Source of the DNA: an uncultured Gammaproteobacteria bacterium | GTDB taxonomy: Bacteria; Patescibacteriota; Patescibacteriia; Magasanikbacterales; UBA922 | DNA length: 64,000 nucleotides | Direction of reading: 5' to 3' | Assembly (NCBI GenBank): GCA_965231005.1 | Contig: OZ246405.1 | Location: forward strand, 546,709 to 610,708 | Shown: positions 2,281 to 50,500 of the stretch, one piece after another | Position numbering within the stretch: position 1 is the first letter of the stretch | Layout of the letters: every line of letters starts with the position of its first letter | The notes under the pieces: model-generated | The model's database searches: none | Told to the model about the DNA's origin: nothing | What the model saw: the letters and a program-made list of their open reading frames with translations, nothing else | Made by a program: the position numbers and the translations under genes

Positions 2281-3471
2281 GTGAGATATTCTCTGATGTT
2301 TTTGTTTATAGCTGTTCTCAGCATGAGCGGCTGTGTAAAGGTCACCCACCTGACAGAAAGGGGAGGAGGGGTTGGCTACAAAGTGAAGATCCAGGAGCCA
2401 ATGGTAACTCGGATCGATCCAGATCTGAGCGGCTGCAACATGGCATTTTTGCCGTTCGCATCACGGACCGGCGCAGTCAGCATCGATCTCGATCTCGCCT
2501 TTGCGAATCGCAAGCTCGACGTGATTGTCGGCTTTGTGAAAGGGCGTTCCAAAAAGTGCAAAGTTGTTTCGCCGAACAAGGCTCAACAACAACTGTCAAA
2601 GTCAGGACTCATTCAGCCGTACGCACAGGCACTACGCAATTACGCAACCAGTGGCATGATCGACGAGTCAGTCATCCGAAAAGTGGCAAACGCGCTCGGT
2701 GTTGACATGCTGATCCAGACCAAGCTGCTTCGATTCGACGCAGATATATCAACGAACCAGTTCCGCGCGGCCAGAGTTCGCTTTATCGCCTTTTCAAAGA
2801 AGACCGGTCGAGTTGCATATTCTGTTGAATCGAGCGGTGCTGCGAAAAAGTTTGATACGCGTTTTACACACAAGTCTGTGAAGCGTGATCATTCCTCAGC
2901 AGCCTTGTACACCATGATCGCAGGAGGGATTGGTGCTGTAGGTCTGCTCGTTACTCTTTTCGCCGACGACAATGATCTCACGCCAGTTGGTATTAGTATG
3001 ATGATACCAGCTGCTGGTATCCCGCTTGCTCGCAGGGACGGTGAGGTATTCAGGAAAGAGGAGGGAGATCACTACGATAAATCCTCCAGGGGAATGAGCG
3101 TACAGGCCGGGTTTTCCAAAGTACTCCACAAAGGACTTGTCCCAGTCTTGAAACTTGCTGGGCTTTACACCAGGCGTAGTGGTCAGAAGAATTCGACAAC
3201 ACAAGTCAAACCAATGAGTGTTGGAGAAAGGACTGGCTTGAACGATCCCTCTAGTGATCCAAAGTCGTTGACAGGATTGATGCCAATCTGCCAGCGACTC
3301 TGCAAAGCCTACGTCGGACTCGACTACAACACACAAGGAATTGCTGCAAGGCGGAAGGCGCTTCAATGCACCAAGCGCTGTGTTCAATACAAAGACAAGA
3401 GATATCGAGCATGCCTGCGTAATGCGGCTGTTCCTGGCGACGTCCACAGCTGTGAATCACTGCCGCGCTAG
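2281..3471 (+). CDS. Hypothetical lipoprotein with a Cys-rich C-terminus, encoded on a GC-rich segment
   Basis: A GTG start at 2281 lies 8 nt after an AGGAG. The lipobox-like signal is MRYSLMFLFIAVLSMSGC. The gene body is visibly much richer in G+C than the flanking AT-rich DNA. No recognisable catalytic motif was found. The C-terminus is CQRLCKAYVGLDYN...CTKRCVQYKDKRYRACL. Confidence 0.55.
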   Translation: MRYSLMFLFIAVLSMSGCVKVTHLTERGGGVGYKVKIQEPMVTRIDPDLSGCNMAFLPFASRTGAVSIDLDLAFANRKLDVIVGFVKGRSKKCKVVSPNKAQQQLSKSGLIQPYAQALRNYATSGMIDESVIRKVANALGVDMLIQTKLLRFDADISTNQFRAARVRFIAFSKKTGRVAYSVESSGAAKKFDTRFTHKSVKRDHSSAALYTMIAGGIGAVGLLVTLFADDNDLTPVGISMMIPAAGIPLARRDGEVFRKEEGDHYDKSSRGMSVQAGFSKVLHKGLVPVLKLAGLYTRRSGQKNSTTQVKPMSVGERTGLNDPSSDPKSLTGLMPICQRLCKAYVGLDYNTQGIAARRKALQCTKRCVQYKDKRYRACLRNAAVPGDVHSCESLPR

Positions 3472-3498: not shown

Positions 3499-3538
3499 AA
3501 GGGCACACTGAGTTTCACAATTCAGCGTTGCCCTTTTT
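3499..3538 (+). terminator. Putative intrinsic terminator after the GC-rich lipoprotein gene
   Basis: The stem gggcacactga ... tcagcgttgccc is followed by ttttt at 3534..3538. Confidence 0.4.
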
Positions 3539-8969: not shown

Positions 8970-9421
8970 ATGAGCAAACAGTTTCACTATGATCATGGAA
9001 AATACTCAGCAAAAGATATTGTTAAAGCTGTAGAAGAGTGGGGGCATAGGATAAATTTTCAATCGTGCATTCCTGGAAAGAGAGAAGAGGGTTTTTTAGT
9101 TGAAGGTATTCCTATTTTAGTTAGACTCCCAAATGTAGATTATATTGAAAGGGTAATTCTTCCTAAGGGGGGGAAATGATAACGACTGTTAAATGGATGA
9201 CATATGATGACATGTACTATGTTCCAGATCATATGGAAAAAGGAAATCATGAAAGGAATAAAGAACTTCTTGCAGAACATGAAAAGCTATTTATGAAAAT
9301 GAAACGCAAGTTTAGAATGAAGAATCTTAAGCAGCCTAAACAGATAAAAGATAGGGAATGGATTTTGGAATTGCAAGGGAAAGGTGGTTTAAAAAGTAAG
9401 GTAAAAAAATTGTTTGGATAA
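8970..9421 (+). pseudogene. Frameshifted paralog of 8491..8937, either a phase-variable gene or a pseudogene
   Basis: ORFs 8970..9179 and 9176..9421 are together colinear with 8491..8937. Shared sequence includes YSAKD.V..VEEWG, GF.VEG.P and TYDDMYYVPDHMEKGNHERNKELLAEHEKLFMK. The frame breaks at a G7 tract (9167..9173). Inserting one more G gives ...LPKGGEMITTVKWMTYDDMYYVPDH, matching copy 1 (...FEKGGAMVPTIRWETYDDMYYVPDH). Confidence 0.6.
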
Positions 9422-10099: not shown

Positions 10100-10108
10100 A
10101 TAAAAAAT

Positions 10109-10783
10109 ATGTGGTATAAAAAACTCACAACCATTCCGTTTGCAAATATAATACTTGTCTTAGTGTGTTCTTGTGTTGTAAGTTTTATATTTCTTGCATA
10201 CAGAATTTACTACACCGGAGCTTTAATGTATGGGTTTTTAATATGGAATTTATTTCTTGCTGGAATTCCATTCCTCCTTTCTCTTATTATATTTTATTTT
10301 TATCGCAGTCATCCAAAAAAAGTAGGGTTTTTTATCCTTGCATTTTTATGGCTTTTGTTTTTCCCAAACAGTCTTTATATTATTACAGATTTCATTCACC
10401 TGCGTCCTAGAAATGGAGTTCCGTTATGGTTTGATTTAGTTCTTATTCTTTCTTTTGCATGGGATGGACTCTTCCTAGGATTTATATCTTTACAAATCAT
10501 TCATGAAATTATTGCCAAAGCATGGAACAAAGTCGTTGGTTGGGTAACGGCGTTAAGTGTCTTGTTTTTGAGTAGTTTTGGCATATATCTTGGAAGATTT
10601 TTGCGTTGGAATAGCTGGGATGTATTAAGTGATCCCAATGAGTTGTTATATGATATTGTTGACCGGATTGTAAATCCATGGATTCATCCAAGAACTTATG
10701 GAGTTACGATTATGTTGTTTTTGTTTTTTTCAACGAGTTATGTACTGCTTGTTCAATTGGGTAAACAGAAAAATAGATTGTAA
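10109..10783 (+). CDS. Polytopic membrane protein, DUF1361-like
   Basis: A 224-aa ORF. The conserved-looking motif GIYLGRFLRWNSWDV recalls the DUF1361 family signature. It has multiple TM helices. Confidence 0.5.
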   Translation: MWYKKLTTIPFANIILVLVCSCVVSFIFLAYRIYYTGALMYGFLIWNLFLAGIPFLLSLIIFYFYRSHPKKVGFFILAFLWLLFFPNSLYIITDFIHLRPRNGVPLWFDLVLILSFAWDGLFLGFISLQIIHEIIAKAWNKVVGWVTALSVLFLSSFGIYLGRFLRWNSWDVLSDPNELLYDIVDRIVNPWIHPRTYGVTIMLFLFFSTSYVLLVQLGKQKNRL

Positions 10784-17594: not shown

Positions 17595-17945
17595 GTGGAC
17601 ATGGTGTTTAGTGGCAATAATCAAAAGCCCAAGATTGGCATGCAGGTAGAAAAAGGGGAAGAAGGAAGAACAAGACTGTCAGACCGGATTGCAGTGATTG
17701 CAAAACACTGTGAGAAGTTCAAGATTGGTCTTTCTGCAATACCAATCCAAGATGCCCAGCAATACGCAGATACATACACGAACATGGTCATTATGTTCAA
17801 GACAGGATCTCTCGAAGAAGCCCAAGAGATGATTGGAACCGTCATCGGTCGGTTCGTCGAGGATTCCAAGAACGATAACCTTCTCGGTGAGAGAATCGAT
17901 CAATCCGAGAAACCACCTTATTACATTTACGTCGTTTTCAGTTAG
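17595..17945 (+). CDS. Small GC-rich paralog 1 (116 aa) of a GIY-YIG-clan (T5orf172-like) family
   Basis: RBS gggaggtgg. An alternative start is the ATG at 17601. It contains KFKIGLS...P....Y...Y.NMVIMFKT...E..I......KNDN...PPYYIYVV, which aligns with the two downstream paralogs. Confidence 0.6.
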   Translation: MDMVFSGNNQKPKIGMQVEKGEEGRTRLSDRIAVIAKHCEKFKIGLSAIPIQDAQQYADTYTNMVIMFKTGSLEEAQEMIGTVIGRFVEDSKNDNLLGERIDQSEKPPYYIYVVFS

Positions 17946-17969
17946 CACCCACAACGTCCTGGAGGGGAC

Positions 17970-18311
17970 ATGACAACACAAGAGAAGAAGATTGAGATAG
18001 ACCGACAAGAAGAAAAAGGCGAGCACGCTGAAGGGGAGTTGGTCGAACGCATCGGCCTTTTGGCGCTATTTTCCATACGATTCAAGATCGGCATCACCAA
18101 CGATCCAGACGAGCGTTCCAAGGCCTACAAAGACGATTACGATCGCATGGTCGTGCTCTTCCAAACAGACGATCTCGACAAGATTCGTCAGGTCGAGGAT
18201 GACATGATCGAGAAGTTCAAGGCAGAGAGCAAAAACCGAAACCAAATCGCTGGTGGTGGCGGAGACGCTGGTGATCCACCGTACTATCTGTACGTGGTCC
18301 AAAAGTTCTAG
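17970..18311 (+). CDS. Small GC-rich paralog 2 (113 aa), GIY-YIG-clan/T5orf172-like
   Basis: RBS ggagggg, 6 nt upstream. Contains RFKIGITNDPDERSKAY, RMVVLFQT, KNRN, GGGGDAGDPPYYLYVV. Confidence 0.65.
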   Translation: MTTQEKKIEIDRQEEKGEHAEGELVERIGLLALFSIRFKIGITNDPDERSKAYKDDYDRMVVLFQTDDLDKIRQVEDDMIEKFKAESKNRNQIAGGGGDAGDPPYYLYVVQKF

Positions 18312-18445
18312 TCGTGTAGGGCATTCTGCAAGGAGAAGAGGGCACAGCAGGCACTTGTCTGGTGTTGCCCTTTTTATTTTTTCTCTATTACTGATTTGCT
18401 ACCCTTTCCATTACAACCAAAACGCCTACAACCCAGGAGGGAATC

Positions 18446-18799
18446 ATGGCAAAGAAGGGGAAGCTCGTCATCAAGACGTTCACGATCGACATGGACGAGA
18501 GAACAGGCAAGGCAGGAAGGGAATCACTTCCTGTTCGAATTTCAGCGCTTGCAGGATATGCAAAGCGTTTCAAGATCGGGATTACCAATGATCCAGAGGG
18601 TCGTGCAAGTGAATACACCAGAAAGTACTCTCGCATGGTCGTCCTGTTCAAGACCAGCAGTCTTACGCGCATTCGCAACGTTGAGCGGCAGATGGTCGAT
18701 CGCTACATCGATCATCCCAAGAACGACAACAAGGTCGGTGGTGGCGGTGGTGACTACGGTGACTCGCCATACTTCTTGTACGTCGTTCTGAAGTACTAG
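18446..18799 (+). CDS. Small GC-rich paralog 3 (117 aa), GIY-YIG-clan/T5orf172-like
   Basis: RBS caggaggg. Contains RFKIGITNDPEGRASEY, RMVVLFKT, KNDN, GGGGGDYGDSPYFLYVV. A terminator-like T-run follows the gene. Confidence 0.65.
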   Translation: MAKKGKLVIKTFTIDMDERTGKAGRESLPVRISALAGYAKRFKIGITNDPEGRASEYTRKYSRMVVLFKTSSLTRIRNVERQMVDRYIDHPKNDNKVGGGGGDYGDSPYFLYVVLKY

Positions 18800-25000: not shown

Positions 25001-28000
25001 GAAACCCAAATGGTCACAGTATTACATATAAATACAATGAGTTAGGACTTCTTTCCCAGCGGATTGATGCTGATGGTAAAGCAACATCATTTATTCACAA
25101 TGCAGATGGAACAGTTGCTAAACAAATTGATAGACATAATGCAGATGGAACAGAACTTTCACGTAGTCAAACATTTACCTACGATGGTGAAGGAAGAATA
25201 TTAACGGCTGCTGACCCAAGTGGTGAAAAAGAAGTATATACATATGATGCTGTTGGGAATCTCAAAACAATCAAAGACAAAGGTAGTCGAACAACAACAA
25301 TGACATATGATGGTTTTGGCAGACTGACACAACAGAAAGATCCTTCTGGAGCAATTACAACATATACATATGATAATGTTGGAAATAGAAAGACAGTAAA
25401 ACTTCCTAGTGGGCAAATTACGAATTTTGAATATGATAAGGAAAACAGATTGGTAAAAACAACAGATCCATTAAAAGGAGCAAGCGTCTATACATACGAT
25501 GTCTTTGGTAATAGAACAAGTATTCAAGATCCACGTAAAAATAAGACCTCATTTACATATGATCTTGGTGGTCAATTGGTTGAAGAAGTTGATGCACAAG
25601 GAACAAAGATCATTTACACATATGATAAGAATGGAAATCGTCTAACACAAGATGTTGCAGGGAAGAAAACATCATATGTTTTTGACAAAGTAGACAGGGT
25701 TACAAAGGTTACACATCCTGGAAATGTTGTAGAAACATTTGCATATAATGCAGATGGACTTGTGCGTGAGCAAACAAATGGAAATAATGTTAAGACAGCA
25801 TACACATATGACAATCTTGGACGAACAGTAAAAAAACAATTTGCAGATAATTCTACATATACATTTGGATATGACCAATGGAGTAATGTAAAAAAGATTA
25901 CTGATGATGTTGGAACAATTGATTATACATATTCAAATAGAAATGAACAGTTAAGTGAAAAAAGAACGTTTAGTGATTTAAACAAGTCATTTACTGTTGC
26001 AAGGACATATACACCAAATGGATTGCTTAAAGATGTAACAGATGCAGCAGGGAAAAAGATTGATTATGTCTATGACAATCGTGCAGCACTAAAATCTGTT
26101 GCACACAAGAGTAAGATTTTAGCATTATACACATATTCAAGTAATGGAACACCAACAAAAGTTACGTATGGAAATGGTGTAACAAATAATATTGCATACG
26201 ATGAATTAGATCGTGTGGGTAGTTTTGCAATTAAAAATTCATCTGGAAATAATTTGTTTACCCATGCATATACTTACGATGGGGCAAATAACAGAACAAA
26301 AACAGTTGAAAATGGAACACGAACAATTGAATATACATATGATGGACTTGATCAATTAAAAACAGAAAAAATTACTGACAAAGGAAATGTATATTCATTT
26401 GGTTTTGATTATGATAAATGGGGAAATAGGAGCGCACTGACATCTCCACATCAAAAAGCTACATATGCATATACAAATGGAACAGATCGACTTGAAAAAA
26501 CTGCATACAATGATCGTCTTTCTGTAGCAACAACATATGATAAAAATGGAAATGTAGCAAAAGAATCATTTAGTAGACTTGGAAAAGATTTGCGAAGTGT
26601 AGATTATGTATGGAATGCAAAAAATCAATTGCAATCTATTTCATATACAGACAAGAGCAGACCATCATTCATGCCAGCGCTTGAAAAGAACTCAATGACC
26701 TTTGCATATGATTTTGCTGGCAATCGTGCAAAGAAAAAAGCAAATAATCAAACAACATACTACATCAACAATGGCGTACTTGTTCAAAATGAGATTAATG
26801 GCTCAGGCTTGGTCACACTTTCTTTGGTACAAGGACTTGATACTGTTGCACGAATCAATGCAGCAGGAACAATAGAATATATTCATCAAGATGCCCTTGG
26901 TTCTACTGTGTTGATTACAGACGCGAATGAAAAAGTTGTAGAAGAATATGAATACACACCATTTGGAGAAATAGCTGGACTTGGCAATGGTAATCATTCC
27001 TATCTGTTTACAGGGCAAGAATACGACATTGAATCTGACCTTCATTATTACAATGCACGATATTACAATCCACGAACTGGACGATTCTTGTCTAGAGATC
27101 CATTCATGGGTGTTGCAGGAAGCACATTATCGAGAAATGCATATATTTATGTAGAAAATAATCCACTGAAACATACTGATTCAACAGGACTTTGGTTTGG
27201 AATAGATGATTTGATTGCTGCAGGTGTTGGGGCTGTAGTAGGTGTTGCAGCACAAGCTGTATCAGATTTGGCAACAAGTGCAATAAATGGAAAACTTGAG
27301 TTTAGTAGTTGGCAGACCTATACTGGTGCTGCTGTAGGTGGAGCTGCAGCAGGAACTGCATTCCTATATACTGGACCAGTCGGTTCTGCCCTAGTCTATG
27401 GTGCTGTATCAAATGCAACAACACAGGGATTAAACATTGCGACTGGAGTTCAAGATAGTTTTGATACAAAGAGTTTTGTTACTGAGACAGTAGCAAGTGG
27501 TGTTCTTGGTGGTGTTGGTGGAAAAATACTTCCAAAAGTAGCTCCAAAGATATTGCCGAAGATTACGTCAAAAGTGCTTCCAAAGGTTACATCTAAAGTT
27601 AATACTGCTATCAATACAGTCCGATCTAAGTTAGTACCAAAGGCTACTAAATTTACACAAGATACACTAAAATCTTTGAAAAATACAAAGGTAAAAGGTG
27701 TCTATGATATTGTTCTAAAAAATGGAAAACACTATGTTGGTCAGTCAAAAAACATTGCAAATAGGTTGTTGCAGCATATAAAGAACAAAAAGTTTTCTCT
27801 AGATGATATTGCAAATATTAAGATAAAGGAAGTTGTTGGTGGTAAAACAGCTCGGGAAATAGTAGAGCAACGAATAATAAATTCTCTTGGTGGTATTAGA
27901 GGAGGCAATCTTCTAAATGTAGTAAATCCAATAGGAAAAGCAAGACAATACCTTATGAATCAAGCGCCAAAAATAGTTAGATCAGGCTGGTTCTCTAAGA

Positions 28001-28116
28001 TCTTTGGTGCAGGACCAAAGATAGGAGGAGCAGCGACTACGCAGCAGATACTAGGTGCAACAGGAGTTGGTATGGGAATTACTGGATTGAATTATGCATT
28101 TCAAGATAATAAATAA
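19081..28116 (+). CDS. RHS/YD-repeat polymorphic toxin (3011 aa) with CARDB-like repeats and a C-terminal GIY-YIG nuclease tip
   Basis: The leader is MRTSTYYIKQGSIIILAFLTAFMPTASVFA, followed by an Asp/Pro-rich region. Several CARDB-like modules end in E.NE.NN motifs. The RHS core N-terminus is RTGAIEFTQTDYTLDGRGIPINISRTYNS. There are dozens of YTYD..GN YD repeats. The RHS core end is YYNARYYNPRTGRFLSRDPFMGVAGSTLSRNAYIYVENNPLKHTDSTGLW. In the tip, KGVYDIVLKNGKHYVGQSKNIANRLLQH matches GIY-x10-YIG-x-R..H, with downstream E (AREIVEQ) and N (LLNVVN). Confidence 0.88.
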   Translation: MRTSTYYIKQGSIIILAFLTAFMPTASVFAQTYDAPFDDPIIYEEPPLSDVDPWTPPAFPDYYPDPIDIDDNGFPLGDDPSILSANTFDPTTDPLFKPMPENAWGTPLSYEVPLYDWAKPTTSYIENGLVISPAEIISDFDPNESGIAEMDEPIAPLDSAEPTESPLDDEDFEDGDPDVGIDDIVVLPEDGSIDSSSVGSIPAEEGEQESNDEEQEPIDESLYQVQDSYTDVAKLPNGKTVVRLYKEPRMVYESEDGLKVRPLSWSLFHEQEESKLRDNGSDTYRYEIPSEQENIVVRPGTLERDFGQTIIEPEAARFDQYRDGNEMITRYSGVYPGVDISFHDIKDYRQRAIVINEPLEGLDDSDNAIFWETYSLPEESRVSIGAEEYLEDGYHELPSDIVTIEQPNGDKFAVTGAIIFDQRTADPVSIDMNPTVVDQIVHVDRGAGELRIGLKAPGTYLNDPERAYPVIIDPYNYICKDNSSQNIKSCSIEEVYLRYKTSNSITAKQSNKYLLLGYIYSYVKPTGPSHRQPVMRFMKNDKNFFPNLKNYGTLDKAKLYMRRSEVNGSGSYTGKIPTVVRRIYTPSTWHPNWVTFNYVGNHLHTISDTTNVFGNMKEGASASWDITALVGLWMTGTTNNGFLIQPTPVWNKNGSVPTWPKKILWFRSSKHPDDYGPYIRFDFTEAKKPNLTKQSDNLTGWWKIANGVRYFRPGDKMTIKATVKNEGPGSAGSSSYVKYYLRPGHSSSKPQNQYYLSGSQDYVPNLSQGSTSNESYTYTIPSNKPNGDYGIFYSIDANNNVSESDENDNIWFWNIRIEAEKKVNLVITDPTIQSSVKPGESVNVSGTVKNIGTSPSEKTKMCHYISKTTSKNNIVVDYPKIDPGTVENTSALSPGGKDKDSETLKIPTNLAPGGYYLLFEADCKNNQKETNENDNIGWKYFTVAQPTKPDLFLKNTSHNYTTRKQGEVLRVTSYVENKGDANAGTFKVGYYLSTDTSLGGDTLIGEREFSSGVAVGKIENRFKDLTIPVNQTPGNYYIIHVADYKGQISEKNENNNSAYRALTIKSKDEPTNLIAKSNTLLNTSKTHLGGQTVQMQATIENKGTNSANNIKVKLQLENTKTGSFVVLKNVSPPGVTISGNSTKTVTYTGLIENTCDLPLEGTYAAHITVNSNQAIGEITYKDNIVKTKAGNTIKVKRYNICTPKKFDEDNDGFYDSEEFYMGSDPMSKESIPIPASNFEKDFSLPVDYAVDNFGGDPVNLRTGAIEFTQTDYTLDGRGIPINISRTYNSRLAHVSSTIGTGWNHSYNLYAFQDPNTKKTFVNLGGSKAIEFTTSDGGKTFSVERGETGTLYSDNGVLTYKLLNGTKYRFTKSLSERLFLLTEIVDTFGNTTKLNYKDIRGLQVLESIADASGRKVTFKHGEITDDIEWNKIVAIEDTVANTNKRHIAYSYDDKGRLTEVKETRRTGNKTDYAVRKFGYDDKNRMTTYTDPRGSILYNTYDGNNRIIEQHEHNPLTENPGEKHLIFKLSYTGANAQIPGSTECTTLTSYRDTEEKDLVVDQYCFDKHGNKIAHKDGEGNIEKWKYHDNDLVVAYTDKKNRVTSYNYDGLKRLQTTILPDSDKYHTEIHYTYEDTFNRVKQMEEKVYDLSNKLLGTRITSNVIDSKTGAVTESTDVLKNKESFTYDQYGNVLTHINKNKNKTTFTYDEKGNYLTKQSTQWKKPLSSTVNTHSVAYEYDDHGNLTKKTYADGKSDTYTYDSAGNALSHTDRQNATYSYSYDVENHRISEKDPLGTATTFTYDKDLEGRLIKIETTSGGKTITETTDYDLLGNVLRETDALSRAISYEYDKVNRLVKELRPYHTKTFTYDVSDNLTKEITDKGHKTEYAYDKHDQLIETKVYTSPTAFVLAKSSYDHFGREVSATDGNNNSTIFTYDLADQLLTKVDAEKQKTSYFYDAEGNIIGELSPRAQADKGLRNPNGHSITYKYNELGLLSQRIDADGKATSFIHNADGTVAKQIDRHNADGTELSRSQTFTYDGEGRILTAADPSGEKEVYTYDAVGNLKTIKDKGSRTTTMTYDGFGRLTQQKDPSGAITTYTYDNVGNRKTVKLPSGQITNFEYDKENRLVKTTDPLKGASVYTYDVFGNRTSIQDPRKNKTSFTYDLGGQLVEEVDAQGTKIIYTYDKNGNRLTQDVAGKKTSYVFDKVDRVTKVTHPGNVVETFAYNADGLVREQTNGNNVKTAYTYDNLGRTVKKQFADNSTYTFGYDQWSNVKKITDDVGTIDYTYSNRNEQLSEKRTFSDLNKSFTVARTYTPNGLLKDVTDAAGKKIDYVYDNRAALKSVAHKSKILALYTYSSNGTPTKVTYGNGVTNNIAYDELDRVGSFAIKNSSGNNLFTHAYTYDGANNRTKTVENGTRTIEYTYDGLDQLKTEKITDKGNVYSFGFDYDKWGNRSALTSPHQKATYAYTNGTDRLEKTAYNDRLSVATTYDKNGNVAKESFSRLGKDLRSVDYVWNAKNQLQSISYTDKSRPSFMPALEKNSMTFAYDFAGNRAKKKANNQTTYYINNGVLVQNEINGSGLVTLSLVQGLDTVARINAAGTIEYIHQDALGSTVLITDANEKVVEEYEYTPFGEIAGLGNGNHSYLFTGQEYDIESDLHYYNARYYNPRTGRFLSRDPFMGVAGSTLSRNAYIYVENNPLKHTDSTGLWFGIDDLIAAGVGAVVGVAAQAVSDLATSAINGKLEFSSWQTYTGAAVGGAAAGTAFLYTGPVGSALVYGAVSNATTQGLNIATGVQDSFDTKSFVTETVASGVLGGVGGKILPKVAPKILPKITSKVLPKVTSKVNTAINTVRSKLVPKATKFTQDTLKSLKNTKVKGVYDIVLKNGKHYVGQSKNIANRLLQHIKNKKFSLDDIANIKIKEVVGGKTAREIVEQRIINSLGGIRGGNLLNVVNPIGKARQYLMNQAPKIVRSGWFSKIFGAGPKIGGAATTQQILGATGVGMGITGLNYAFQDNK

Positions 28117-35110: not shown

Positions 35111-35701
35111 ATGCTAAAAATTCGTCTCCAACGTATTGGACGAAAGAAACGACCATCATATCGTGTGATTGTTTCTGAACATACAAAAGACACACAAGCA
35201 GGAAGTCTTGAAATCCTTGGACATTATGATCCTTTGGCTGAGCCAAAGATTATGGAGTTCAAAGGTGATCGTATTCTTCACTGGATTTCAGTTGGTGCAC
35301 AACCTTCTGCAACAGTACAAAACCTCCTTATCAATGCAGGGATTATAAAGGGTGAAAAAGGAAAAGCTGTTACAATTACAAAGAAACGTGCAGCAAAGAT
35401 TGCAGAAAAGGCTGAAAATGAAAAAGCAAAAGCTGAAGAGGCTAAAAAGGCTCAAGAAGAAGCCGCAGCAGAAGCAGCAACTCCAGAGGTAGAAGAAGAA
35501 AAACCAGCTGAGGAACCTGTTAAAGAGGAAGAAGCTTCAAAAGAAGAGCAGTCTGCTCCAGAAGTTGAAGAAACAGCAGCTCCAGCAGAAGATCAACCAG
35601 AGGCTGAAAAAGAAGAAGAGCCTACTCCAGCAGCTGAAGAAAAGAAAGAAGAAGCAACAGAAGAAGCAGCTCCTAAAGAATCTGAAGAATCAAAAGAATA
35701 A
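35111..35701 (+). CDS. rpsP: 30S ribosomal protein S16 with a long Glu/Ala/Lys-rich C-terminal extension
   Basis: The N-terminal approximately 85 aa (MLKIRLQRIGRKKRPSYRVIVSEHTKDTQAGSLEILGHYDPL...) is canonical S16. A low-complexity EAK-rich tail follows. Confidence 0.85.
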   Translation: MLKIRLQRIGRKKRPSYRVIVSEHTKDTQAGSLEILGHYDPLAEPKIMEFKGDRILHWISVGAQPSATVQNLLINAGIIKGEKGKAVTITKKRAAKIAEKAENEKAKAEEAKKAQEEAAAEAATPEVEEEKPAEEPVKEEEASKEEQSAPEVEETAAPAEDQPEAEKEEEPTPAAEEKKEEATEEAAPKESEESKE

Positions 35702-35767: not shown

Positions 35768-36424
35768 TTAGTTTTCTAACCGAATGTCTGTGATGGCAGT
35801 CTTTTCTTGAGTTGTGCCATCGTTCCAAGCAACATCAAATGTTCCGTCTGCATTTACTTTGCCAATTTTTCCTGGCCAGTAATTTCCACTTACACTCCAA
35901 ACTGCTTGGATTTTTGTTCCAACAGGAAGTTGTGCTTTTGTAGGAACTGGTCGTGCTGCAATTTCAGCATTTGGATCTACTTTTTCTGCTGGTTTTGTTT
36001 CAGCAGGTGCAGATGATCCTGCAGGACGTGGGTCTAATCGAAGACCATTTAATGTTACGTCGTATTCAACACCATCATAGTATTTGACTTTGTATGTTCC
36101 ATTTGTGATGCTAATAACTTCTGCGTCGTAGTATGGTGTTCCTGTCCATTTTGCAAGAACCTTTGTTCCTACTTTTACTTTTCCTTTGCTTGGTACAGCA
36201 TTCTTCACAAGTTGATTTGTGGAGACACATTTTTGGTCACCATCATCAAATTTTACATTAAAGCCTTTGTCACAGGTTTTATCAATTGAACCTGCATACC
36301 ATGTTTTTGATGTCCATTCTGCATAGACACTGTCGCCGACAGCAAATTTGTTTGCTGCACAGCCTCCACCTATAAGGAGGAGTGTTAGAAAGAGCCCTCC
36401 CAAAAGAGAACGGTTAAACCGCAT
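35768..36424 (-). CDS. Lipoprotein with three tandem Tudor/SH3-like beta repeats
   Basis: The lipobox signal is MRFNRSLLGGLFLTLLLIGGGCAA. The three repeats are GDSVYAEWTSKTWYAGSI...NVKFDDGD, GTKVLAKWTGTPYYDAEVISITNGTYKVKYYDGVEYDV and GTKIQAVWSVSGNYWPGKIGKVNADGTFDVAWNDGT. Confidence 0.55.
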   Translation of the reverse strand: MRFNRSLLGGLFLTLLLIGGGCAANKFAVGDSVYAEWTSKTWYAGSIDKTCDKGFNVKFDDGDQKCVSTNQLVKNAVPSKGKVKVGTKVLAKWTGTPYYDAEVISITNGTYKVKYYDGVEYDVTLNGLRLDPRPAGSSAPAETKPAEKVDPNAEIAARPVPTKAQLPVGTKIQAVWSVSGNYWPGKIGKVNADGTFDVAWNDGTTQEKTAITDIRLEN

Positions 36425-37089: not shown

Positions 37090-37163
37090 GCGCGCATAGC
37101 TCAGTTGGTTAGAGCGCCACATTGACATTGTGGAGGTCTCTGGTTCAAATCCAGATGTGCGCA
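37090..37163 (+). tRNA. tRNA-Val (anticodon GAC)
   Basis: Cloverleaf read by eye. The acceptor stem is GCGCGCA/TGTGCGC (one G-U pair). The D arm is gctc-agttggtta-gagc. The anticodon stem ccaca/tgtgg carries loop ttGACat. The T arm is tctgg-ttcaaat-ccaga. The discriminator is A, and no CCA is encoded. Confidence 0.8.
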
Positions 37164-37370
37164 CATGACACATTGACTCAGTTTCCGCCAAAGGCGGACC
37201 AGCCTTTGGCTGGGGTTAGAGCGCCACATTGACATTGTGGAGGTCAGTGGTTCAAATCCAGATGTGCGCACATGACACATTGACTCAGTTTCCGCCAAAG
37301 GCGGACCAGCCTTTGGCTGGGGTTAGAGCGCCACATTGACATTGTGGAGGTCTCTGGTTCAAATCCACTA
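37107..37370. repeat. 107-bp tandem direct repeat (about 2.5 copies) composed of the 3' 57 nt of tRNA-Val plus a 50-nt spacer with two hairpins
   Basis: ggttagagcgccacattgacattgtggaggtc.c.ggttcaaatccagatgtgcgcacatgacacattgactcagtttccgccaaaggcggaccagcctttggctgg repeats with starts at 37107, 37214 and 37321. The third copy diverges after ggttcaaatcca. Copies 2 and 3 lack the 5' acceptor and D arm, so they are tRNA fragments. Confidence 0.75.
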
Positions 37371-37391
37371 GCGGTCACGAAATATATTAAA

Positions 37392-37465
37392 GGGCGATTA
37401 GCTCAGTTGGTTAGAGCGCTACACTGATAATGTAGAGGTCCCAGGTTCAAATCCTGGATCGCCCA
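37392..37465 (+). tRNA. tRNA-Ile (anticodon GAU)
   Basis: The acceptor stem is GGGCGAT/ATCGCCC. The D arm is gctc-agttggtta-gagc. The anticodon stem ctaca/tgtag carries loop ctGATaa. The T arm is ccagg-ttcaaat-cctgg. The discriminator is A. Confidence 0.85.
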
Positions 37466-37471
37466 CATAGG

Positions 37472-37499
37472 ATCCGTCAGACTGACGGGTCTTTTTTTT
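37472..37499 (+). terminator. Intrinsic terminator after the tRNA cluster
   Basis: The near-perfect palindrome gatccgtcag a ctgacgggtc is followed by tttttttt. Confidence 0.55.
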
Positions 37500-37637
37500 A
37501 TCTGCGACCTTGACAAAATAACCATTTTATGATAGTATCAACTGTCTCATCGTAACAAGAGATAAGTCTTACTGCCGTAGCTCCCTGGATATACCGCGCG
37601 ATTTTAACCCGCGTGCGGCGTACCAGGGAGGTACACA

Positions 37638-37835
37638 ATGGTCGGGAGACTACTCTATGTTTTGAGCGTCATAGCCTTCTTGCTCAGCGCTTTCGTTGCT
37701 GGATTGGATTTCATCGAGAAACAACCAGTTGGATTGAACGCGATCTACTTCTCAATTTCATCAGTCGTACTCGGCATCCACGCCCTATACCTGAATCATG
37801 CAGAGGAGCGTGAAGAGTCGACACGAGAAGGCTAA
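37638..37835 (+). CDS. Small membrane protein (65 aa) on a GC-rich island
   Basis: RBS gggagg, 7 nt upstream. A single TM helix (LLYVLSVIAFLLSAFVAGL) plus a second hydrophobic stretch. GC-rich codon usage unlike the flanks. Confidence 0.45.
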   Translation: MVGRLLYVLSVIAFLLSAFVAGLDFIEKQPVGLNAIYFSISSVVLGIHALYLNHAEEREESTREG

Positions 37836-38110
37836 GACATAGCCCGAACCTCGCACTAGCTGCGACGATGTTCCCCAAATCTCGGGAGCTACATCGCGCT
37901 TGCGGGATTCGGGAAACATTGAAAGAACATCTGATAGTAAGGTGTTTTTTTGATTTCCAACATTGACAAAACGAAAAAAATACTATTAGATACAACCATT
38001 GCCGACGGTCGGCAGTGTCCTTTTTACCTCCATGTGCTGAATGAATTGTCTGCTTGCAGAAAGGTCATTCCGCAGCGCTGCACGCCTTTATGGTCTGCAG
38101 GGAGTTTCTC

Positions 38111-39061
38111 ATGAATACTATCTCTCCAAAAGAGATCTTTGCACACCAACACATCCGTGGTGGATGGTTTTGGGTGCTTGTCATCCTCCTCGTCATCGCT
38201 GGGGCTGCCTGGCTTCACTGGGCCTACGTCCTCCCTGGCCTAAACAATCCCTTCGAGTATCCTGCGGCAATCATCTGGATCGAGTTCGCCCTGTTCTTCC
38301 TGTGGTATGCTTTTTCCAGAGTGAATCACACATTCCTCGATACGGTCTGGCCGTTCAAGTTCTTTGGCGACTACAATCGTCTGAACATTGTCGGTTACAG
38401 ACTGGTTCATTGCATGAGTGGTGATGGTGACTACAGTACCATCCTCGTCAGTAACGAGGACTGGAAAGAAAAGCAAAATAGGCGCTTGATTTTTCCAGAG
38501 CGTACACGTTTGGCACTGGTTGTGCCGCTCGGTGGATGGTTCAGCGGTGATGTTGAACTGTACGTGCACAAGGATGCTGTATATGAACTGTGCAAACCAT
38601 GGGTAGGAACGTTCCATTGTCCACATCCTGCGACTCGTGTGCTGCTGCACAAGTTCCATCTCAGTTTTCACAGCAGTGATATTCGGGGTGGAAGGGGTCT
38701 GTTTCCAAAGGTGACAACGCCAGTCGATATTCAAGATCTGCTCAAGCTCTTGAATCGTGAAGAGACCATGTCATCGATGCGAACTCTCATGGACAGGAAC
38801 CTGCTCGCGCTCTGCCGACATCTGGCAACGCTGCGCAAGCTGGATATCACAGAACCCCGGAGTCTTGCACTCAACGGCTGCATCGCAACAATGTGGCTGG
38901 CTGTTGGACAACTCGACAACAGGGATAAAATGGGTCGATCACCTGGCGCTGGTGCTATCAAGATCAACATTCTCAAAGAGCTTCGCGCTCTCGGTGAACT
39001 CAAGCCTGGAGAGCACGACAAGTTCATCCGTCTTCTGGAACAAGCTGACAAGGCTGCGTAA
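38111..39061 (+). CDS. Hypothetical membrane-anchored protein (about 316 aa) on a GC-rich island
   Basis: The ATG at 38111 follows ggag. The ORF track's 38054 start lacks an RBS. It has N-terminal TM helices (WFWVLVILLVIAGAAWL, AAIIWIEFALFFLWYAF) and a soluble C-terminal domain with no recognised motif. G+C is much higher than in neighbouring genes. Confidence 0.55.
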   Translation: MNTISPKEIFAHQHIRGGWFWVLVILLVIAGAAWLHWAYVLPGLNNPFEYPAAIIWIEFALFFLWYAFSRVNHTFLDTVWPFKFFGDYNRLNIVGYRLVHCMSGDGDYSTILVSNEDWKEKQNRRLIFPERTRLALVVPLGGWFSGDVELYVHKDAVYELCKPWVGTFHCPHPATRVLLHKFHLSFHSSDIRGGRGLFPKVTTPVDIQDLLKLLNREETMSSMRTLMDRNLLALCRHLATLRKLDITEPRSLALNGCIATMWLAVGQLDNRDKMGRSPGAGAIKINILKELRALGELKPGEHDKFIRLLEQADKAA

Positions 39062-39191
39062 AAACAAAAACACCAAGGAGAACAAACTCCGATCCAAACA
39101 AATGTGTGCCCTTTGGGTTTCGCTGCTGCAAGGTTCGGAGGGTTACAAAAGAACACCAGATTATGGTGTTTTTTTGATCCATTTTTACATA

Positions 39192-39220
39192 TTGACAAGA
39201 CACAACTTTTTCGCTATACT
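39192..39220 (+). promoter_or_regulatory. Sigma70-like promoter for lepB
   Basis: ttgaca (39192..39197), a 17-nt spacer, then tatact (39215..39220). Confidence 0.5.
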
Positions 39221-39293: not shown

Positions 39294-39911
39294 ATGTCAG
39301 AAAAAAAATTCAACACAAAAGTACATAAAGATGAACATATTCATCTCGAAGAAATAAATGCGTACGGAAAGATCGCACTGTTTTTTCTTGAATTAATAAA
39401 AATAGCACTTATTGCGGGTGTTACTATTGGACTTGTCAGATACTTTTTGTTTAAACCATTCTATGTAAAAGGACAGTCAATGGAACCAAATTATTTTGCT
39501 AGTGAATATCTTATTGTTGATGAAATTACATACCGCTTTCGTGAACCAGAACGTGGAGAAGTAATCGTATTTAAATCACCAGTTGTTCAAAAAGAATTTT
39601 ATCTCAAACGCATTATTGCATTGCCAGGAGAACGAGTAAAAGTTGAAGATGCAAAGGTTATTGTGTATAACGAGGAGTATCCTCAGGGAGTGCTTGTTGA
39701 AGAACAATACATTACAGAACAAACTCCAGGAAAAATAACTGTTACACTTGGACCAGATGAGTATTTTGTTATGGGTGACAATAGAGACGCAAGTTTTGAT
39801 TCGCGTCGATTTGGTGCGATTAGCAGAGAACATATTGTAGGAAAAACATGGCTCCGTGGGTGGCCAATTAAAAGAATTTCAACATTTAAATCTCCAGTCT
39901 ATAATTTATAA
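39294..39911 (+). CDS. lepB: Signal peptidase I
   Basis: ATG at 39294. The TM anchor is followed by GQSMEPNY (catalytic Ser box), KRIIALPGE (Lys box) and GDNRDASFDSRRFG. The track's 384-aa ORF (38757..39911) is an artefactual upstream extension through the GC-rich island. Confidence 0.85.
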   Translation: MSEKKFNTKVHKDEHIHLEEINAYGKIALFFLELIKIALIAGVTIGLVRYFLFKPFYVKGQSMEPNYFASEYLIVDEITYRFREPERGEVIVFKSPVVQKEFYLKRIIALPGERVKVEDAKVIVYNEEYPQGVLVEEQYITEQTPGKITVTLGPDEYFVMGDNRDASFDSRRFGAISREHIVGKTWLRGWPIKRISTFKSPVYNL

Positions 39912-44539: not shown

Positions 44540-47500
44540 ATGAGATATTGGAATACAATTACATTTAAGCAAAAAGTAATCACCGCTTTGATGATGGCTT
44601 TTGTTTTGGTTTCTTTCATGCCAATATCTGTATTTGCGGTTGGGGCAGGAGAAAGTTGTCAAAATGCTGTTTGTGATAGTGGGTTAGCATGTAATGATGA
44701 CAAGGTCTGTGTTGCCACAGATACCTTTGGTATACAATCAGTTGATGGAGAAGTATCACTTGGAAAAGAAGATATTAGAATAACCATTACAAAAATAATT
44801 AGTACTGCGCTTGGACTACTCGGTATTATGGCTGTTGGAATCGTGCTCTACGGTGGTTTTAAATGGATGACAGCAGGAGGTAATGAGGAACAAGTATTAG
44901 ATGCCAAAAGATTGCTTATCAATGGTTTGATCGGTTTAGTCATTATTATGTCTGCATGGGCAATTGCTCGTTTTGTTTTGGCAAAGCTTTCAGATGCGAC
45001 TGGTTCGGGATCTGTTCCATGTATTGGAGAAGATTGTAAAAAGGACGAAGAACAAATTAAAGTAGTTATTCCTACTGGTGGTGACGAGTGTGCAGCTGAA
45101 AATGAATTATTTGTTTTACAAAGTATTACACCAAATCAAGATGAAACTGGGATGAATAATATTGTAATGCGTGCAATATTTAGCAAGGATGTTCAAACAC
45201 CACTCGAAGACATATTTGTTATTGAGCAAGACAAAAATCTTAAAAACAAAAATTCATTTACATATAAATATGCAGACGATGCAGGTCAGCGAATTGTTGA
45301 AGCAGTATATAAGGGAGATACGTCTTGTGCAGCTGGAGGAAAGGACTGTTTACCAGAAGGAAAAACATATACAGTAAAGGTTCACAAAAATGTAAAAGGT
45401 CCAGGCGGTGAAGCACTCCAAAATGAAAAGTTAAAAGTTACTTGTCCAGATACAAAAATAGACACACTTGTAAAAGATGGTGCAACATTCAAAGTAGACA
45501 AAAAAGCAACCGATGCACAAGATCCTTCTATCAAAGTTCAGATCTTAGATCAAAGTGGTGTTGTTGTGGCAAGTTTAGGTCAAAAAGAACCAAAAGTTGA
45601 AGCAGGAAAAACATATGATGTTCTTATTACTGCTTTTGATGACAGTGGCATGGGATATATACGTACGATACTCACAGACCATGCATCAAAGAAAATTCTT
45701 GATAAATGGTCTGGACCTTCCAGTGAATCTGACAAGGTCTTCCAAAAAACCTATTCCTTTACTGTTGGTGCTGCTGTTGAAAAAGGTGCTGCCATGAATA
45801 TTGAAGTTGAAGCATTTGATATTGATCATAAAAAAGAAGAAAAGCAGTTAACACTTTCTGTTGTAAATGATAAAAGTGGGGGAGAGGGATCTTATTGTAA
45901 AAAAATCCTAGATTGTAAGCTTGGCCTCAAGTGTGTAGCCAATGTTTGTTCGGCTTCTCCATATATTACAAACATGGACCCAGACAATGGTGCGCCAGGA
46001 AATTGGATCACGATTGCTGGACAACATTTTGGAGAGAAGCCAGGAAAAATTCAATTTTCATTTGATAAAAATAAAAATGGACAGATCGATGGAGCAGACG
46101 AATGGAAAGACGCAAAAATTGTGGCATGTAATGATAAAAAACCAATGTGGACTGATAACTTTGTCATTGTGGAAGTTCCTTCTGACAAAGATATTGGTTT
46201 AGAAGCATTTGTAAAGGTTATTACTGAAAGTGGGGAAGAAGATACAAGTGGAGATGATTTTGGTCCGCTTGCAGCACCATTTGAAAAAGGAGATGGTGTT
46301 CCAAATGGTGTCTTTAAAAGGAATAGTACAAAACGACCAGGATTGTGTCAGGTTGTGGCAAAAAAAGATCTTGCAACACAAGCAAAACCAGAAGAATCAA
46401 TTCATACATTGGGTTCAGGGTTTGGGCCAAAAGAGCAAGCTGGAAAGATTCTTTTTGGAGGAAAAGCATTTGACGGTCTTCACTGGAACGAGGTGAATGT
46501 TGAAATTCCTGTTCCTACAAATCTTAATCCAGCTACTGTTGATGTAAGAGTTCAAGCAAAAAATGGTGAAAAAAGTAATGGAGTATTATTTACTGTTCTT
46601 CCTGGAGATGCAGACCTTGAGCTTCCAATTATTGACAACATAGATCCTGCAACATCTACAGTGAATAGCTTTGTCACTATTACTGGAAGGAATTTTGGTG
46701 ATAGTGGAAAAATATTTCTCACACTGGAAAAAGGTGGTGTGTGTCCTGGCGGTGGATGTATGGAGATAAAAACACCAGCCGTTTGTGGTAACACATGGAG
46801 TGATAAACAAGTTGTAGCAGAAATTCCTAATGTACAAACAATCAACTTTACTAAACCGTACTATGTTGTTATTCAAAATGGAAAAACAAAAAAGAGTAGC
46901 AATGGACAACAGTCACTCAGAGTTATAAAAGGAGATCCAATACCTGGACTTTGTTCTATAACACCAAACAAAGGTCCTGCACCACTTCCTGCAGGGGTTG
47001 ACCTTGTATTAAAAGGAAATAATTTTGATAAACCAACAGTATATTTTTATAAAAAAGGTGCAGATATTAAAAAGGTTTCAGAGTGGTTTAAACAAGCAGT
47101 AGATAAACTAAAAAGTGCTTCGAAAACAGAGATCGTCACACTTTTACCATTAGAAAAAACAGGTAAATCTATGCCAACCGGACCAATTCGTGTTGGTGTA
47201 GGGTCAAAACTCAGTAACAGTGTGAATTATGAAGTTGTGGATTGTACAGTAGATGCATCTGGCAAACCAGGCGAGGAATATCGATGTTGTAGCGCAGAAG
47301 GGCCAGATAAAGGATTGTGGAAACATACAAAGAATGTATGTTCAGGAGAAGTCAGAGATGCAGGATATGTATGGAGATTTACAACAGGAAAGTTTCCAGA
47401 AATTCCATATGTTGTTGAACAAACAACCTGTACTCCTGAAAAAGATGCAAATGGAAAATTAAAAGATGTAAAAGAACTTTCTTCTCCAAGTCCATGGAAA

Positions 47501-50500
47501 GAACAAACTGGTGGTAATGCAGCATGTCTGAACACACGTATTGCAACACGGTTTACAACAAACATGGATCTTTCAACATTAACAAAAGATACGTTTGTAT
47601 TGTATGAATGTGGGACAAAAGAAGAGGATTGTAATGACACAGAGAAAAAGAAAAAAGTTGACTGGAAAATTGATTCAAATACGAAGAAAGAAAAAATCGA
47701 TGTAACCAATACATCAATTCTTGGGACACCAAAAGAACTTAAACCAACAACATGGTATCGAGTAGAATTGTCTAATAAGATTCAATCAAATAATACTGTT
47801 AAAGTTGCAGGCGAAAATCAAGTAGAAAAAATTCCACTCGGAAACACTGCTGGATGTGGCAATGGAACAGCATACTGTTTTACATTTAAAACAGGTTCTG
47901 CGTCGTGTGCAATAACAGGAGCATATATCAATCCAGCAGAACATATTACTCGAACACTTGGTGTTGTACAACATCCAGGGTATCCAATTGATGACAATAT
48001 TGAAAAACCAAAATATCCGCTCAACTACATATTAACAGGAACAACAGATAATTCTTGTGTACCTATTGATGTAGATGGCCTTGGATGGAAATGGACAGGA
48101 CAAAAAGGTGTAGCAGAAGTAACAGAAGGATTTAAAGATACACGAGCAACAGTAAAAGCACTTCAGCATAGTGAAAAAGCAGTGACAATTTCTTCATCAT
48201 TGAAAAAGAACGCAGCAAAAAATATTGAAAAGGATATTACTGCAAAATCTCTCCTTCACATTGATTTACTTGAGCCAGAGGTTATATTCAATGAACCAGA
48301 GTGTCTTGGATCATGTGTGAATCCACAAATACGTGCAGTGTTCAATCGTCATATGGATAAGAGTACCTATGCAAAAGGATTCAAGATGTACACATGTACC
48401 GATGCGAGCTGTGAAAAAAGACAAGTCTTAAAAGACGCAAAGGTAGATGAAATTGCTTCAACGGCAACGGTTATTGATATTGCTCTCAATAATGCGCTTG
48501 CAACAAGTACGTACTATCAGGTTGTTCTTGATAAAAATATTCGCGCGCTTAGTGGTTCTTCTAAGATTGTTGGAAAAGAATTAAAAGAAAAGAATTGGGT
48601 ATTTAAGACACAAGATGATCCAACACCATGTACTGTGTCGTACATGACACTCGATCCAAAAGATCATGTTGCAACACAAGTTGGTGAAAAAACAATATTT
48701 ACAGTAAATCCATATAGTAGTTCAAACAAATGTAGTGCTGTTGGACAGCCACTCGACAGATGGAAATTTGATTATGAATGGAAAACAGGAGATGTAGATG
48801 TTGCAACAGTATCACACTTTAAAAATACACCACTGTCAGCATTGAACCAGTCATGTTCAACAAGCTGTCTTCCAAGAGGAAGCGATATCTTACGAACAGG
48901 AACCGACAATCAAAAAATTGTTTGTGGAGATGGAGTAGTAAGTAAAGGAGAGGATTGTGACATTGGCATTCAAGGAGAAATTGTTGGACAGTCTTGTACA
49001 ATAAACTGTTTGCGTCCTGGAAATAATAATATTGATAAAGCAAACACGTGTGGTGATAAAAATATTGATAAACAATTTGGTGAAGAATGTGATCCAGGAA
49101 AAGATAAAGAAGGAAATGTTATAACAGATGATCCTGCATGTACGTCACTTTGTCAGCACAGAGGGTCAACACCATTTGATGGGTCAGCAAAAGCAAATTG
49201 TGGTGATGGAATTACTGACAAGGCAAAAGGTGAAGAATGTGATCCAGGAAGTGATAAAAATAAAAAAGTAAAAACAGATGATCCGTTCTGCACATCTAGC
49301 TGTCTCAAACGAGGAACAGATCTTGCTGCAGCATGGTGTGATGTTCAAAAGAATAAACCAGCTGAGTGTAAGGCAGCAAAAAGTGTTTGTGGTAATCTTC
49401 CAAATAGTGTTCTTGAATTAGATGAAGAATGTGAAATTGAATTTGATCCTGCTGATAAAAAATGGGGTCTGAGAATTCGCGGTGTTCCCGGGTTGTACCA
49501 AAAACATGAGACAAAGAAATTAGCACAATTATACTGTTCAAACAATTGTCGTTTGATCAATCTTTGTGAATTGCAAAATAAATTACCAAATAACGTTCCA
49601 AATGATTTAAATGGATGGTGGTGTCAGGCAGGACAAGAAGGATGTACAGATTCTTGTAAGATTGCAGGGGCATCTCCTGAATATTCAGAGCCATCAATCT
49701 GCGGTGATGCAGTAAAAGGAACTGGGGAATATGGTGCCTGTGAATTAGAAAAGGCAGACGTCAATCCAAATGACGGTCCTGCACAAGTTGTTACAGCAGT
49801 TGGAAAGAAAAAAACACAGGGAAATGCACAAAAAACATTTATTCAAGCAACACTTTCATCAAACAAAAATATTATTGCAAAGGCAGATTATGCATTGCAA
49901 TGTGGATTTACAGAATATGTCGAAGTGAGTGTTGGAAAGAAATTTAATGATTGTCCAAACGGAACAGATGGAGTATCATCGTCTGATTCTTGTTGTTATC
50001 CACGACCAAAGCGTTCTCTTGTATATCCAAAAGACGGATCAGGATTGACAGACCAAAATAATATTTGTCGAAACACGTCTATTCATGTGGAATACGATAA
50101 GGAAATAAGTCTTGAAAGTGTAAAGAAAAATGCAATGTTATTGCGTGGATACAAAGCACCATATGCATGTGACAATACAAAGGGAGAAAAAGATGTAAGC
50201 AAAGAAGTTGGAACATACCTTGCGTATGATACATCAAATGAACCTTCTGGATGGTTTGAAAAGATTTGGTTTAGCATTAAAAAATTCCTTGTATCTGTAT
50301 TTAAAGTTGATTCACTTGCAATTAACTTCAATGTCACAACATATATCAAGGATGTAGAAAAGATTTCTGTATGGTGTGAAATTGGCGGTGGTCTAAAACC
50401 ATCTGTCGATGTTCAAAAAGACGCACAAGGGAAAGTAGTAAAAAGTACAGTGCATTTATCACTAACAAATGTTCTTGGTGCAGATTCTGTGTATGCTGTA

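Follow-up and report, generated by a model that had tools for sequence, protein, structure and literature searches.

Two predicted membrane-protein genes in a slot between tRNA-Ile and lepB

We analysed a 64,000-nt stretch of contig OZ246405.1 (assembly GCA_965231005.1, positions 546,709 to 610,708; hereafter the window), assigned by GTDB to the Magasanikbacterales within the Patescibacteriota, in which two genes, p65 and p316, form a GC-rich islet between a tRNA cluster and the gene for LepB (Table 1). The hydropathy of both products is consistent with membrane segments, as the original prediction had proposed. Overall GC content of the window is ~36.8%, and a sliding-window profile has peaks at only three places (~2.2-3.5 kb, 17.5-18.9 kb, and 37.1-39.2 kb), which are the three segments previously singled out as foreign. 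For the third of these (37613-39061; island 3), GC is 0.500 against a background of 0.358±0.020 in 1.4-kb windows (z ~6.7), and its raw tetranucleotide distance of 0.045 compares with 0.0237±0.0037 for the background. G+C at third codon positions (GC3) reaches 0.545 in p65 and 0.562 in p316, compared to 0.236±0.055 in 30 host genes (z = 5.6 and 5.9), while the genes of islands 1 and 2 score z = 4.7-7.1 against the same host genes. The predicted preference for codons ending in G or C was recovered for all four codons named, with island versus host values of 0.38/0.09 for CTC, 0.38/0.09 for GTC, 0.71/0.11 for ATC, and 0.22/0.08 for GGC. The correlation of relative synonymous codon usage (RSCU) between islands and host is ~0.1-0.24 (~0.1 for the islet). 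The left shoulder of the third peak is partly native (the KH gene has a host-like GC3 of 0.288, and tRNAs are intrinsically GC-rich), and at the right edge GC drops from 0.485 to 0.31 over ~38.9-39.4 kb in 200-bp windows; the foreign segment proper extends from ~37545, ~80 bp 3' of tRNA-Ile, to ~39180, a length of ~1.6 kb.

This segment interrupts a conserved neighbourhood. The order KH, tRNA-Val(GAC), tRNA-Ile(GAU), LepB, HisRS, YqeY is kept in ~15 related loci, tRNA-Val included, and tRNA-Ile is 91-93% identical to its counterparts in the relatives L015, L017, L019, and L024. The distance from the last tRNA to the LepB match is 130-320 bp in most relatives versus 1828 bp in the window, and no p65- or p316-like coding sequence occurs in any related locus compared. 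The closest relatives of HisRS, LepB, KH, S16, and SMC share 53-77% amino acid identity and are labelled Candidatus Magasanikbacteria or Patescibacteria. Elsewhere, the same slot carries unrelated cargo (GIY-YIG genes, an Abi_C-like protein, an SH3/CAP protein, and orphan open reading frames (ORFs)), and in another relative it holds a 7.5-kb heavy-metal ATPase block. The tRNA-to-LepB slot is thus a variable hotspot across the lineage. The GIY-YIG genes in question are true members of that family (Pfam E ~1e-14), tandemly duplicated in loci L011 (686-1490) and L006 (5458-6191), and each is followed by a tRNA 3' fragment. They look like tRNA-targeting homing-type elements. Two further loci, L004 (~8975-9238) and L019 (~5003-5500), have tRNA 3' fragments between tRNA-Ile and LepB that contain the same 20-nt palindrome, CCTGCCTGCCGGCAGGCAGG, within the T-loop.

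Both islet genes are self-contained, each with its own promoter and terminator, in agreement with the TTGACA promoters that had been predicted at the borders; P2, the promoter region of p316, was read directly from the sequence, and the consensus scan called no promoter there. The signals at the cassette borders resemble each other. The p65 terminator matches 39148-39178 at 28/33 nt with one 2-nt gap (alignment score 40, shuffle maximum 26), and the 31 nt at 37941-37971, from the T-run to the -35 box after p65, are 81% identical to 37488-37518 after tRNA-Ile. Since both similarities exceed all 500 shuffles, the junction modules must have been duplicated or recombined, although this identifies no mechanism.

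Table 1. Features of the islet, its flanks, and the companion islands (window positions)
Feature	Position	Strand	Description
Island 1	2281..3471	+	GC-rich gene for a 396-aa Cys-rich putative lipoprotein; SD CAGGAG; GC3 0.534, z = 5.4
Island 2	17595..18799	+	three SD-led GC-rich paralogues of ~115 aa; GC3 0.50-0.63
tRNA-Val(GAC)	37090..37164	+	ARAGORN; Rfam 71.6 bits; conserved host gene, left anchor of the slot
Two 107-nt units	37165..37380	+	each joins a hairpin-rich spacer of 50 nt to the last 57 nt of tRNA-Val; repeat families D1, D2
tRNA-Ile(GAU)	37392..37466	+	ARAGORN, Rfam; final conserved host feature before the islet
Intrinsic terminator of tRNA-Ile	37469..37500	+	11-bp stem, then T8 run
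Promoter P1 (p65)	37510..37538	+	TTGACA, 17-nt spacer, TAGTAT, extended TG; 10/12 consensus matches
Leader hairpin	37575..37634	+	~24 bp, -35 kcal/mol; buries p65 SD GGGAGG at 37626-37631
p65	37638..37835	+	65 aa; two hydrophobic segments, acidic C-terminal tail
p65 terminator	37922..37951	+	near-copy of the p316 terminator
P2 region	37964..38017	+	TTGACA -35, non-canonical -10; then GC hairpin and T-run at 37997-38017
p316 SD	38100..38104	+	GGGAG, 6 nt 5' of ATG
p316	38111..39061	+	316 aa; two N-terminal membrane helices, ~residues 19-41 and 51-69
p316 terminator	39146..39176	+	13-bp stem plus T-run; approximate right end of the GC-rich segment
lepB host promoter	39192..39220	+	TTGACA, 17-nt spacer, TATACT; right anchor of the slot
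LepB	39294-39911		Peptidase_S26 match at 1.4e-42
SD, Shine-Dalgarno site.

Upstream of the slot, two further peculiarities were observed. Ribosomal protein S16 (35111-35701) is 196 aa long, with a long C-terminal extension rich in Glu, Lys, Ala, and Pro. Between S16 and KH, on the minus strand (35768-36424), lies a gene whose 218-aa product is a putative lipoprotein containing three Tudor/Agenet-like repeats (Pfam E ~1e-12). Its codon usage is host-like, the S16-KH gap of relatives is ~150-330 bp, and tblastn gave no match to it in relatives; here a domain of eukaryote type has been inserted in a lineage-specific manner.

Shine-Dalgarno sites and the companion islands

A second mark sets the islands apart from the host. 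With a Shine-Dalgarno (SD) site defined as GGAG or GAGG at -22..-4 of the start, such sites precede all six genes of the three islands and none of 30 host genes (Fisher p = 5e-7), and the mean energy of the duplex with the anti-SD sequence is -9.5 kcal/mol for island genes versus -1.0 kcal/mol for host genes. Five host genes have a single GGAG or GAGG before a later in-frame start, which is approximately the chance level; none has one at the first start codon. The scarcity is a property of the lineage, as just 2 of 77 starts of conserved genes had an SD site in relatives (loci L002-L051) whose GC contents span 0.28-0.56. By a cruder ORF scan at the first start codon, SD frequencies are 0-22% in relatives versus 29-54% in Bacillus and Dehalococcoidia control loci. 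The ribosome binding sites of the islands had been taken as host-like in the original prediction; they are instead specific to the islands, and this correction strengthens the conclusion of horizontal acquisition. SD presence is a second foreign mark, independent of composition, that coincides exactly with the three islets.

Approximately half of Parcubacteria 16S rRNAs are without the anti-SD motif (Tsurumaki et al. 2022, PMC9297842). The host and its relatives resemble the SD-independent initiation described there for Parcubacteria and Bacteroidetes in that their genes are without SD sites, but differ in that the SD-led exceptions of the window coincide exactly with GC-rich islets. The host 16S rRNA lies outside the window; three more distant relatives end their 16S rRNA with GGAUCACCUCCUUUCU, containing CCUCC (L032 at 6172, L034 at 20, and L043 at 1809).

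The two companion islands have their own distinct contents. The island 1 lipoprotein has no family match, and tblastn against plasmids was negative. In island 2, the three paralogues are 34-49% identical, their matches to the Pfam families T5orf172 and MUG113 are weak and below threshold, and tblastn of one of them, giyB, was negative against phages and plasmids. Along the sequence their motifs read KIGIT..R..E..N..PYYLYVV, the Y-x-Y-V-V strand being C-terminal, and by this order they could represent a permuted GIY-YIG-like fold. The first gene of island 2 likely starts at ATG 17601 rather than at GTG 17595. Directly downstream of island 2 lies one of three giant proteins of the window, the 3011-aa product of 19081-28116, which contains RHS/YD-shell repeats. 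The small LRR-/HEAT-like ORFs that come after it could be immunity genes. The other giant proteins are of 3700 aa (44540-55642) and 1996 aa (11395-17385). All three islands had been described as lying between co-directional genes, a description that does not extend to island 1, the left neighbour of which (1065-2069) is on the minus strand.

The islands also resemble one another. Codon usage is correlated among the three (RSCU r 0.46-0.55), and dinucleotide signatures barely differ between islands 1 and 3. At 3527-3545 and 18363-18381, the terminators of islands 1 and 2 share GTTGCCCTTTTTAyTTTTT at 18/19 nt after GGGCACA stems, a likeness that hints at a common source for these two. Independent acquisitions from a higher-GC donor had originally been envisaged. 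A horizontal, higher-GC source is supported, whereas independence is put in doubt by the similarity in codons, and a single donor lineage is no less likely than three separate ones. We infer that the donor was an SD-using bacterium of roughly 50-55% GC, and all three islets may share it or a similar one. The scarcity of SD sites across the lineage argues against a higher-GC Magasanikbacterium in this role.

The p65 and p316 products

p65 is probably a real coding gene, as judged by its codon statistics. Its frame is the best of six (+11 bits, z = 3.5 versus shuffles) under a codon model trained on the other island genes, and its GC1, GC2, and GC3 follow the pattern of those genes. In database searches it matched nothing but an identical copy from the same sequencing run. 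Alternatively, 37545-37950 could be a structured non-coding RNA in which the 65-codon ORF is fortuitous, a reading to which we give little credence. The gene calls that accompany the ENA contig omit p65, there are no homologues for a conservation test, and the region 37545-37952 folds with z = -7.6, compared to a median of roughly -2.3 for sliding 400-nt windows. Conversely, such an RNA would explain neither the coding score and positional GC of the p65 frame, nor the strong SD at correct spacing, nor the two-segment hydropathy that suits a membrane peptide. It also has no Rfam match, even at E <= 5. Rfam searches for a large non-coding RNA, at the gathering threshold over the whole window and at E <= 5 over 36.9-39.4 kb, gave only tRNAs and chance matches.

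The p65 leader contains a hairpin in which CUCCCUGG pairs with the SD sequence CCAGGGAG. The initiation region of p65 is the most structured of 36 genes (minimum free energy -39.5, SD paired probability 0.91), and leader positions 37577-37590 are complementary to the p65 3' untranslated region at 37879-37892. Type I toxin-antitoxin loci of the hok/sok kind encode a small hydrophobic peptide from a highly structured mRNA in which a stable 5' structure sequesters the SD. p65 would be similar: it is small and hydrophobic, its SD is predicted to be buried in the -35 kcal/mol hairpin, and its whole transcript is predicted to be structured. p65 could therefore be imagined as a translationally locked toxic membrane peptide akin to a type I toxin or a holin, with p316 as its partner in a toxin-antitoxin or defence-type pair, and the tandem arrangement of p316 homologues (described below) would be in keeping with such a pair. 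We nevertheless consider this improbable. No antisense or convergent promoter was found over p65 in the promoter scan, in which the sole minus-strand site (37558 to 37529) points away, and there is no Rfam match at the locus for a type I antitoxin RNA. With 65 aa and two hydrophobic segments, p65 is longer than type I toxins and atypical of them; it has no homology to known toxins, and its acidic C-terminal tail is unlike holins. Moreover, no p65-like ORF adjoins the p316 homologues, and the pair has no PADLOC, PHROG, Pfam, or NCBIfam match.

p316 has a putative layout of two N-terminal helices, a beta-rich core at ~77-186, and a helical C-terminal domain; the core contains the motifs WPF, Y..RN(I/V)(V/I)G, and PLGGW and a conserved Cys170. 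The public gene call is of 323 aa and starts seven codons earlier, at an ATG without an SD; the 316-aa start of the original prediction is the better one. The exact sequence is present in an NCBI contig of 1.23 Mb and in an ENA metagenome contig of 57 kb. Among 5.8 billion clusters the only match is to itself, and a full HMMER pass over 1.84 billion representatives returned one relative, P0002 (E = 5.8e-4). A pairwise comparison of residues 77-180 gives 30% identity with the register kept, and both proteins have the two N-terminal hydrophobic helices; by this in-register alignment and shared architecture, p316 is a real coding gene. The 90% cluster of P0002 includes P0007, encoded on the JGI contig L164 (31.8 kb, 57% GC), where a 240-aa p316-family paralogue aligning in the same register lies directly upstream of it; the homologues are thus in tandem. 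Residues invariant in the three aligned family sequences include WPF, the Tyr88, Asn92, and Gly95 of Y..RN(I/V)(V/I)G, PLGGW, Trp164, and Cys170.

No match for p65, p316, or the p316 homologues was found in Pfam, PHROGs, PADLOC, NCBIfam, or a PDB sequence search. A phage or plasmid link for p316 was sought by tblastn, which was negative (best E = 0.3 against phage genomes), and by a scan of IMG/VR viral contigs, which was likewise negative. A phage-derived module was rejected on these results together with the lack of a PHROGs match, and a known anti-phage defence system was rejected for want of a PADLOC model match. Foldseek searches of the AlphaFold2 models against the PDB gave no match at E <= 0.001, and no fold was assigned.

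Origin of the islet

We conclude, with good though not complete confidence, that ~37545-39180 is a recently acquired horizontal islet of two autonomous cassettes, inserted in a recombination-prone slot 3' of tRNA-Val and tRNA-Ile. Horizontal acquisition is supported by four independent lines, namely the shift in codon usage and GC3, the insertion in a conserved slot, the orphan cargo, and the presence of SD sites within an SD-less lineage. Each cassette is built as promoter, SD, ORF, and terminator, and probably entered by DNA uptake followed by illegitimate recombination, or by recombination anchored on the conserved tRNA genes, rather than through a resident integrase. The products would be accessory membrane proteins, with p65 translation gated by the hairpin over its SD and the cytoplasmic domain of p316 tethered by a two-helix membrane hairpin. 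In an SD-less host, genes with GC-rich structured leaders would probably both be weakly translated. They may be near-neutral passengers; the reading we favour is an accessory membrane module that is dispensable and came in as naked cassettes.

The islet itself is ordinary in kind; its cargo is orphan, and its genes are SD-led in an SD-less lineage. tRNA-associated genomic islands are horizontally acquired accessory DNA, and the islet is like them in its deviant GC and codons, its position beside tRNA genes, its absence in relatives, its orphan cargo, and its situation in a variable hotspot. It is unlike them in its small size (~1.6 kb), in having no integrase or mobility genes and no tRNA-Ile-derived att repeats, and in that its cargo bears translation signals unused by the host lineage.

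Several observations weigh against recent horizontal arrival. There is no close sister genome among the sequences compared, the best HisRS being 66% identical in a scan of GTDB genomes and the best LepB 62% in a scan of JGI metagenomes, so that presence or absence of the islet is resolved at class level only; the expected absence from sister genomes was seen in related Magasanikbacteria loci and holds at that level. In family searches, neither of the two ORFs in the islet matched an integrase or transposase. No second tRNA-Ile 3' end indicative of att duplication occurs within the window. A pattern scan of the three islands on both strands found no attC (RYYYAAC ... GTTRRRY), which also rules against an integron gene cassette. 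The predicted local distance difference test (pLDDT) scores of the AlphaFold2 models are low, at 47 with a single sequence as input and 41 with two aligned sequences. Once normalised for GC, the dinucleotide signature of island 3 falls within the host range (delta* 72-102 vs 87±31), and the foreign signal therefore lies in GC and codon choice rather than in dinucleotides; this could reflect a related donor, or merely low power at 1.4 kb. Literature searches on horizontal transfer in Magasanikbacteria and on PRJEB17505 returned nothing.

The host-like dinucleotide signature would also suit the view that the genes are native and lineage-specific, owing their odd composition to selection or expression level, as would promoters of the same sigma-70 type as those of the host. 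This is very hard to reconcile with a GC3 shift of ~6 sd, RSCU uncorrelated with that of the host, SD sites in an SD-less lineage, and absence from all relatives compared, and we regard it as highly improbable.

That the islet is an assembly chimera or contamination would be more improbable still, although every assembly of known sample derives from run ERR2281800 and the copy number of the tRNA repeat differs among assemblies. Across both junctions, a MEGAHIT contig and the genome record of 1.23 Mb agree in sequence apart from one tRNA-repeat unit: the ENA assembly L001 matches the window over both, save one 107-bp unit, and the Logan contig L083 matches it over the left one. L001 and L083 are both from that run, and the agreeing assemblies may therefore rest on the same data, a further point against the account we favour. 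A chimera is also disfavoured by the position of the three islets, each of which lies precisely between genes and leaves its flanks intact.

The tRNA cluster bears on another possibility, that the islet is the remnant of a tRNA-targeting mobile element, either an integrase-borne island or a GIY-YIG homing-type element, that has lost its mobility gene. ARAGORN, Rfam, and the repeat families agree with the original placement of the segment directly after tRNA-Val, tRNA-Ile, and tRNA fragments. The two 107-nt tRNA-Val fragment units score sub-threshold in Rfam (22-25 bits) and show traces of past recombination at the site; L001 (9108-9290) has one unit fewer than the window, copy 2 being missing. 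The T-arm of fragment copy 2 reads AGTGG/CCAGA, and that of copy 3 reads TCTGG/CCACT with a differing acceptor end (AGCGGTCA). Between AGTGG and CCACT the pairing would be perfect, so that the fragments resemble reciprocal chimeras and the pattern suggests a T-loop crossover between two tRNA-Val types; it is based on 2 nt, with a chance probability of ~1 in 16. In addition to adjacency to tRNA genes and these apparent chimeras, a remnant element would account for the duplicated terminator and promoter modules at the cassette borders and for the GIY-YIG genes with tRNA 3' fragments in the same slot of L011 and L006. The window shares with those two loci the hotspot and the duplicated tRNA 3' fragments. 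Unlike them, it has no GIY-YIG gene in the slot, and its weak GIY-YIG-like triplet (island 2) is 19 kb away. The islet also has no integrase, no tRNA-Ile fragment lies beyond it, the tRNA-Val fragments precede tRNA-Ile instead of flanking the islet on both sides, and the chimera pattern may be due to chance. A remnant element is therefore unlikely in our view.

The p316 homologues provide a different perspective on the SD sites. On L164, where core genes are mostly SD-less, both homologues carry AGGAGG downstream of TTGACAAAA promoter modules that are duplicated. The modules preceding the two paralogues (9180-9245 and 10050-10118; GGCTTTTTGGCTTCTTATTGACAAAA...GCGGCAGGAGGAA) are near-identical, which indicates that promoter and SD were duplicated together with the gene. 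These homologues are SD-led, yet their GC matches that of their contig, and SD sites may thus mark a class of gene or mobile cassette rather than recent arrival, a final point against the account of recent acquisition that we favour. Taken further, SD-less Patescibacteria might swap a floating pool of promoter-SD-ORF-terminator cassettes for rare membrane proteins, in which the SD, instead of being only a relic of the donor, would define a separately regulated translation class using a retained 16S anti-SD and p65 would be a gated toxic or regulatory membrane peptide. We offer this as an improbable speculation; if it were true, SD presence would be a simple means of flagging foreign or accessory genes across whole genomes of these lineages.

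The locus defines a very rare membrane-protein family, with three members sharing WPF, RN(I/V)(V/I)G, and PLGGW. More generally, it provides a clean case in which SD presence or absence flags foreign DNA independently of composition in an SD-independent lineage. This previously unremarked marker could be applied genome-wide in Patescibacteria, where horizontal transfer is hard to call. The case also raises the question of how, if at all, such hosts express SD-led genes that have structured leaders.

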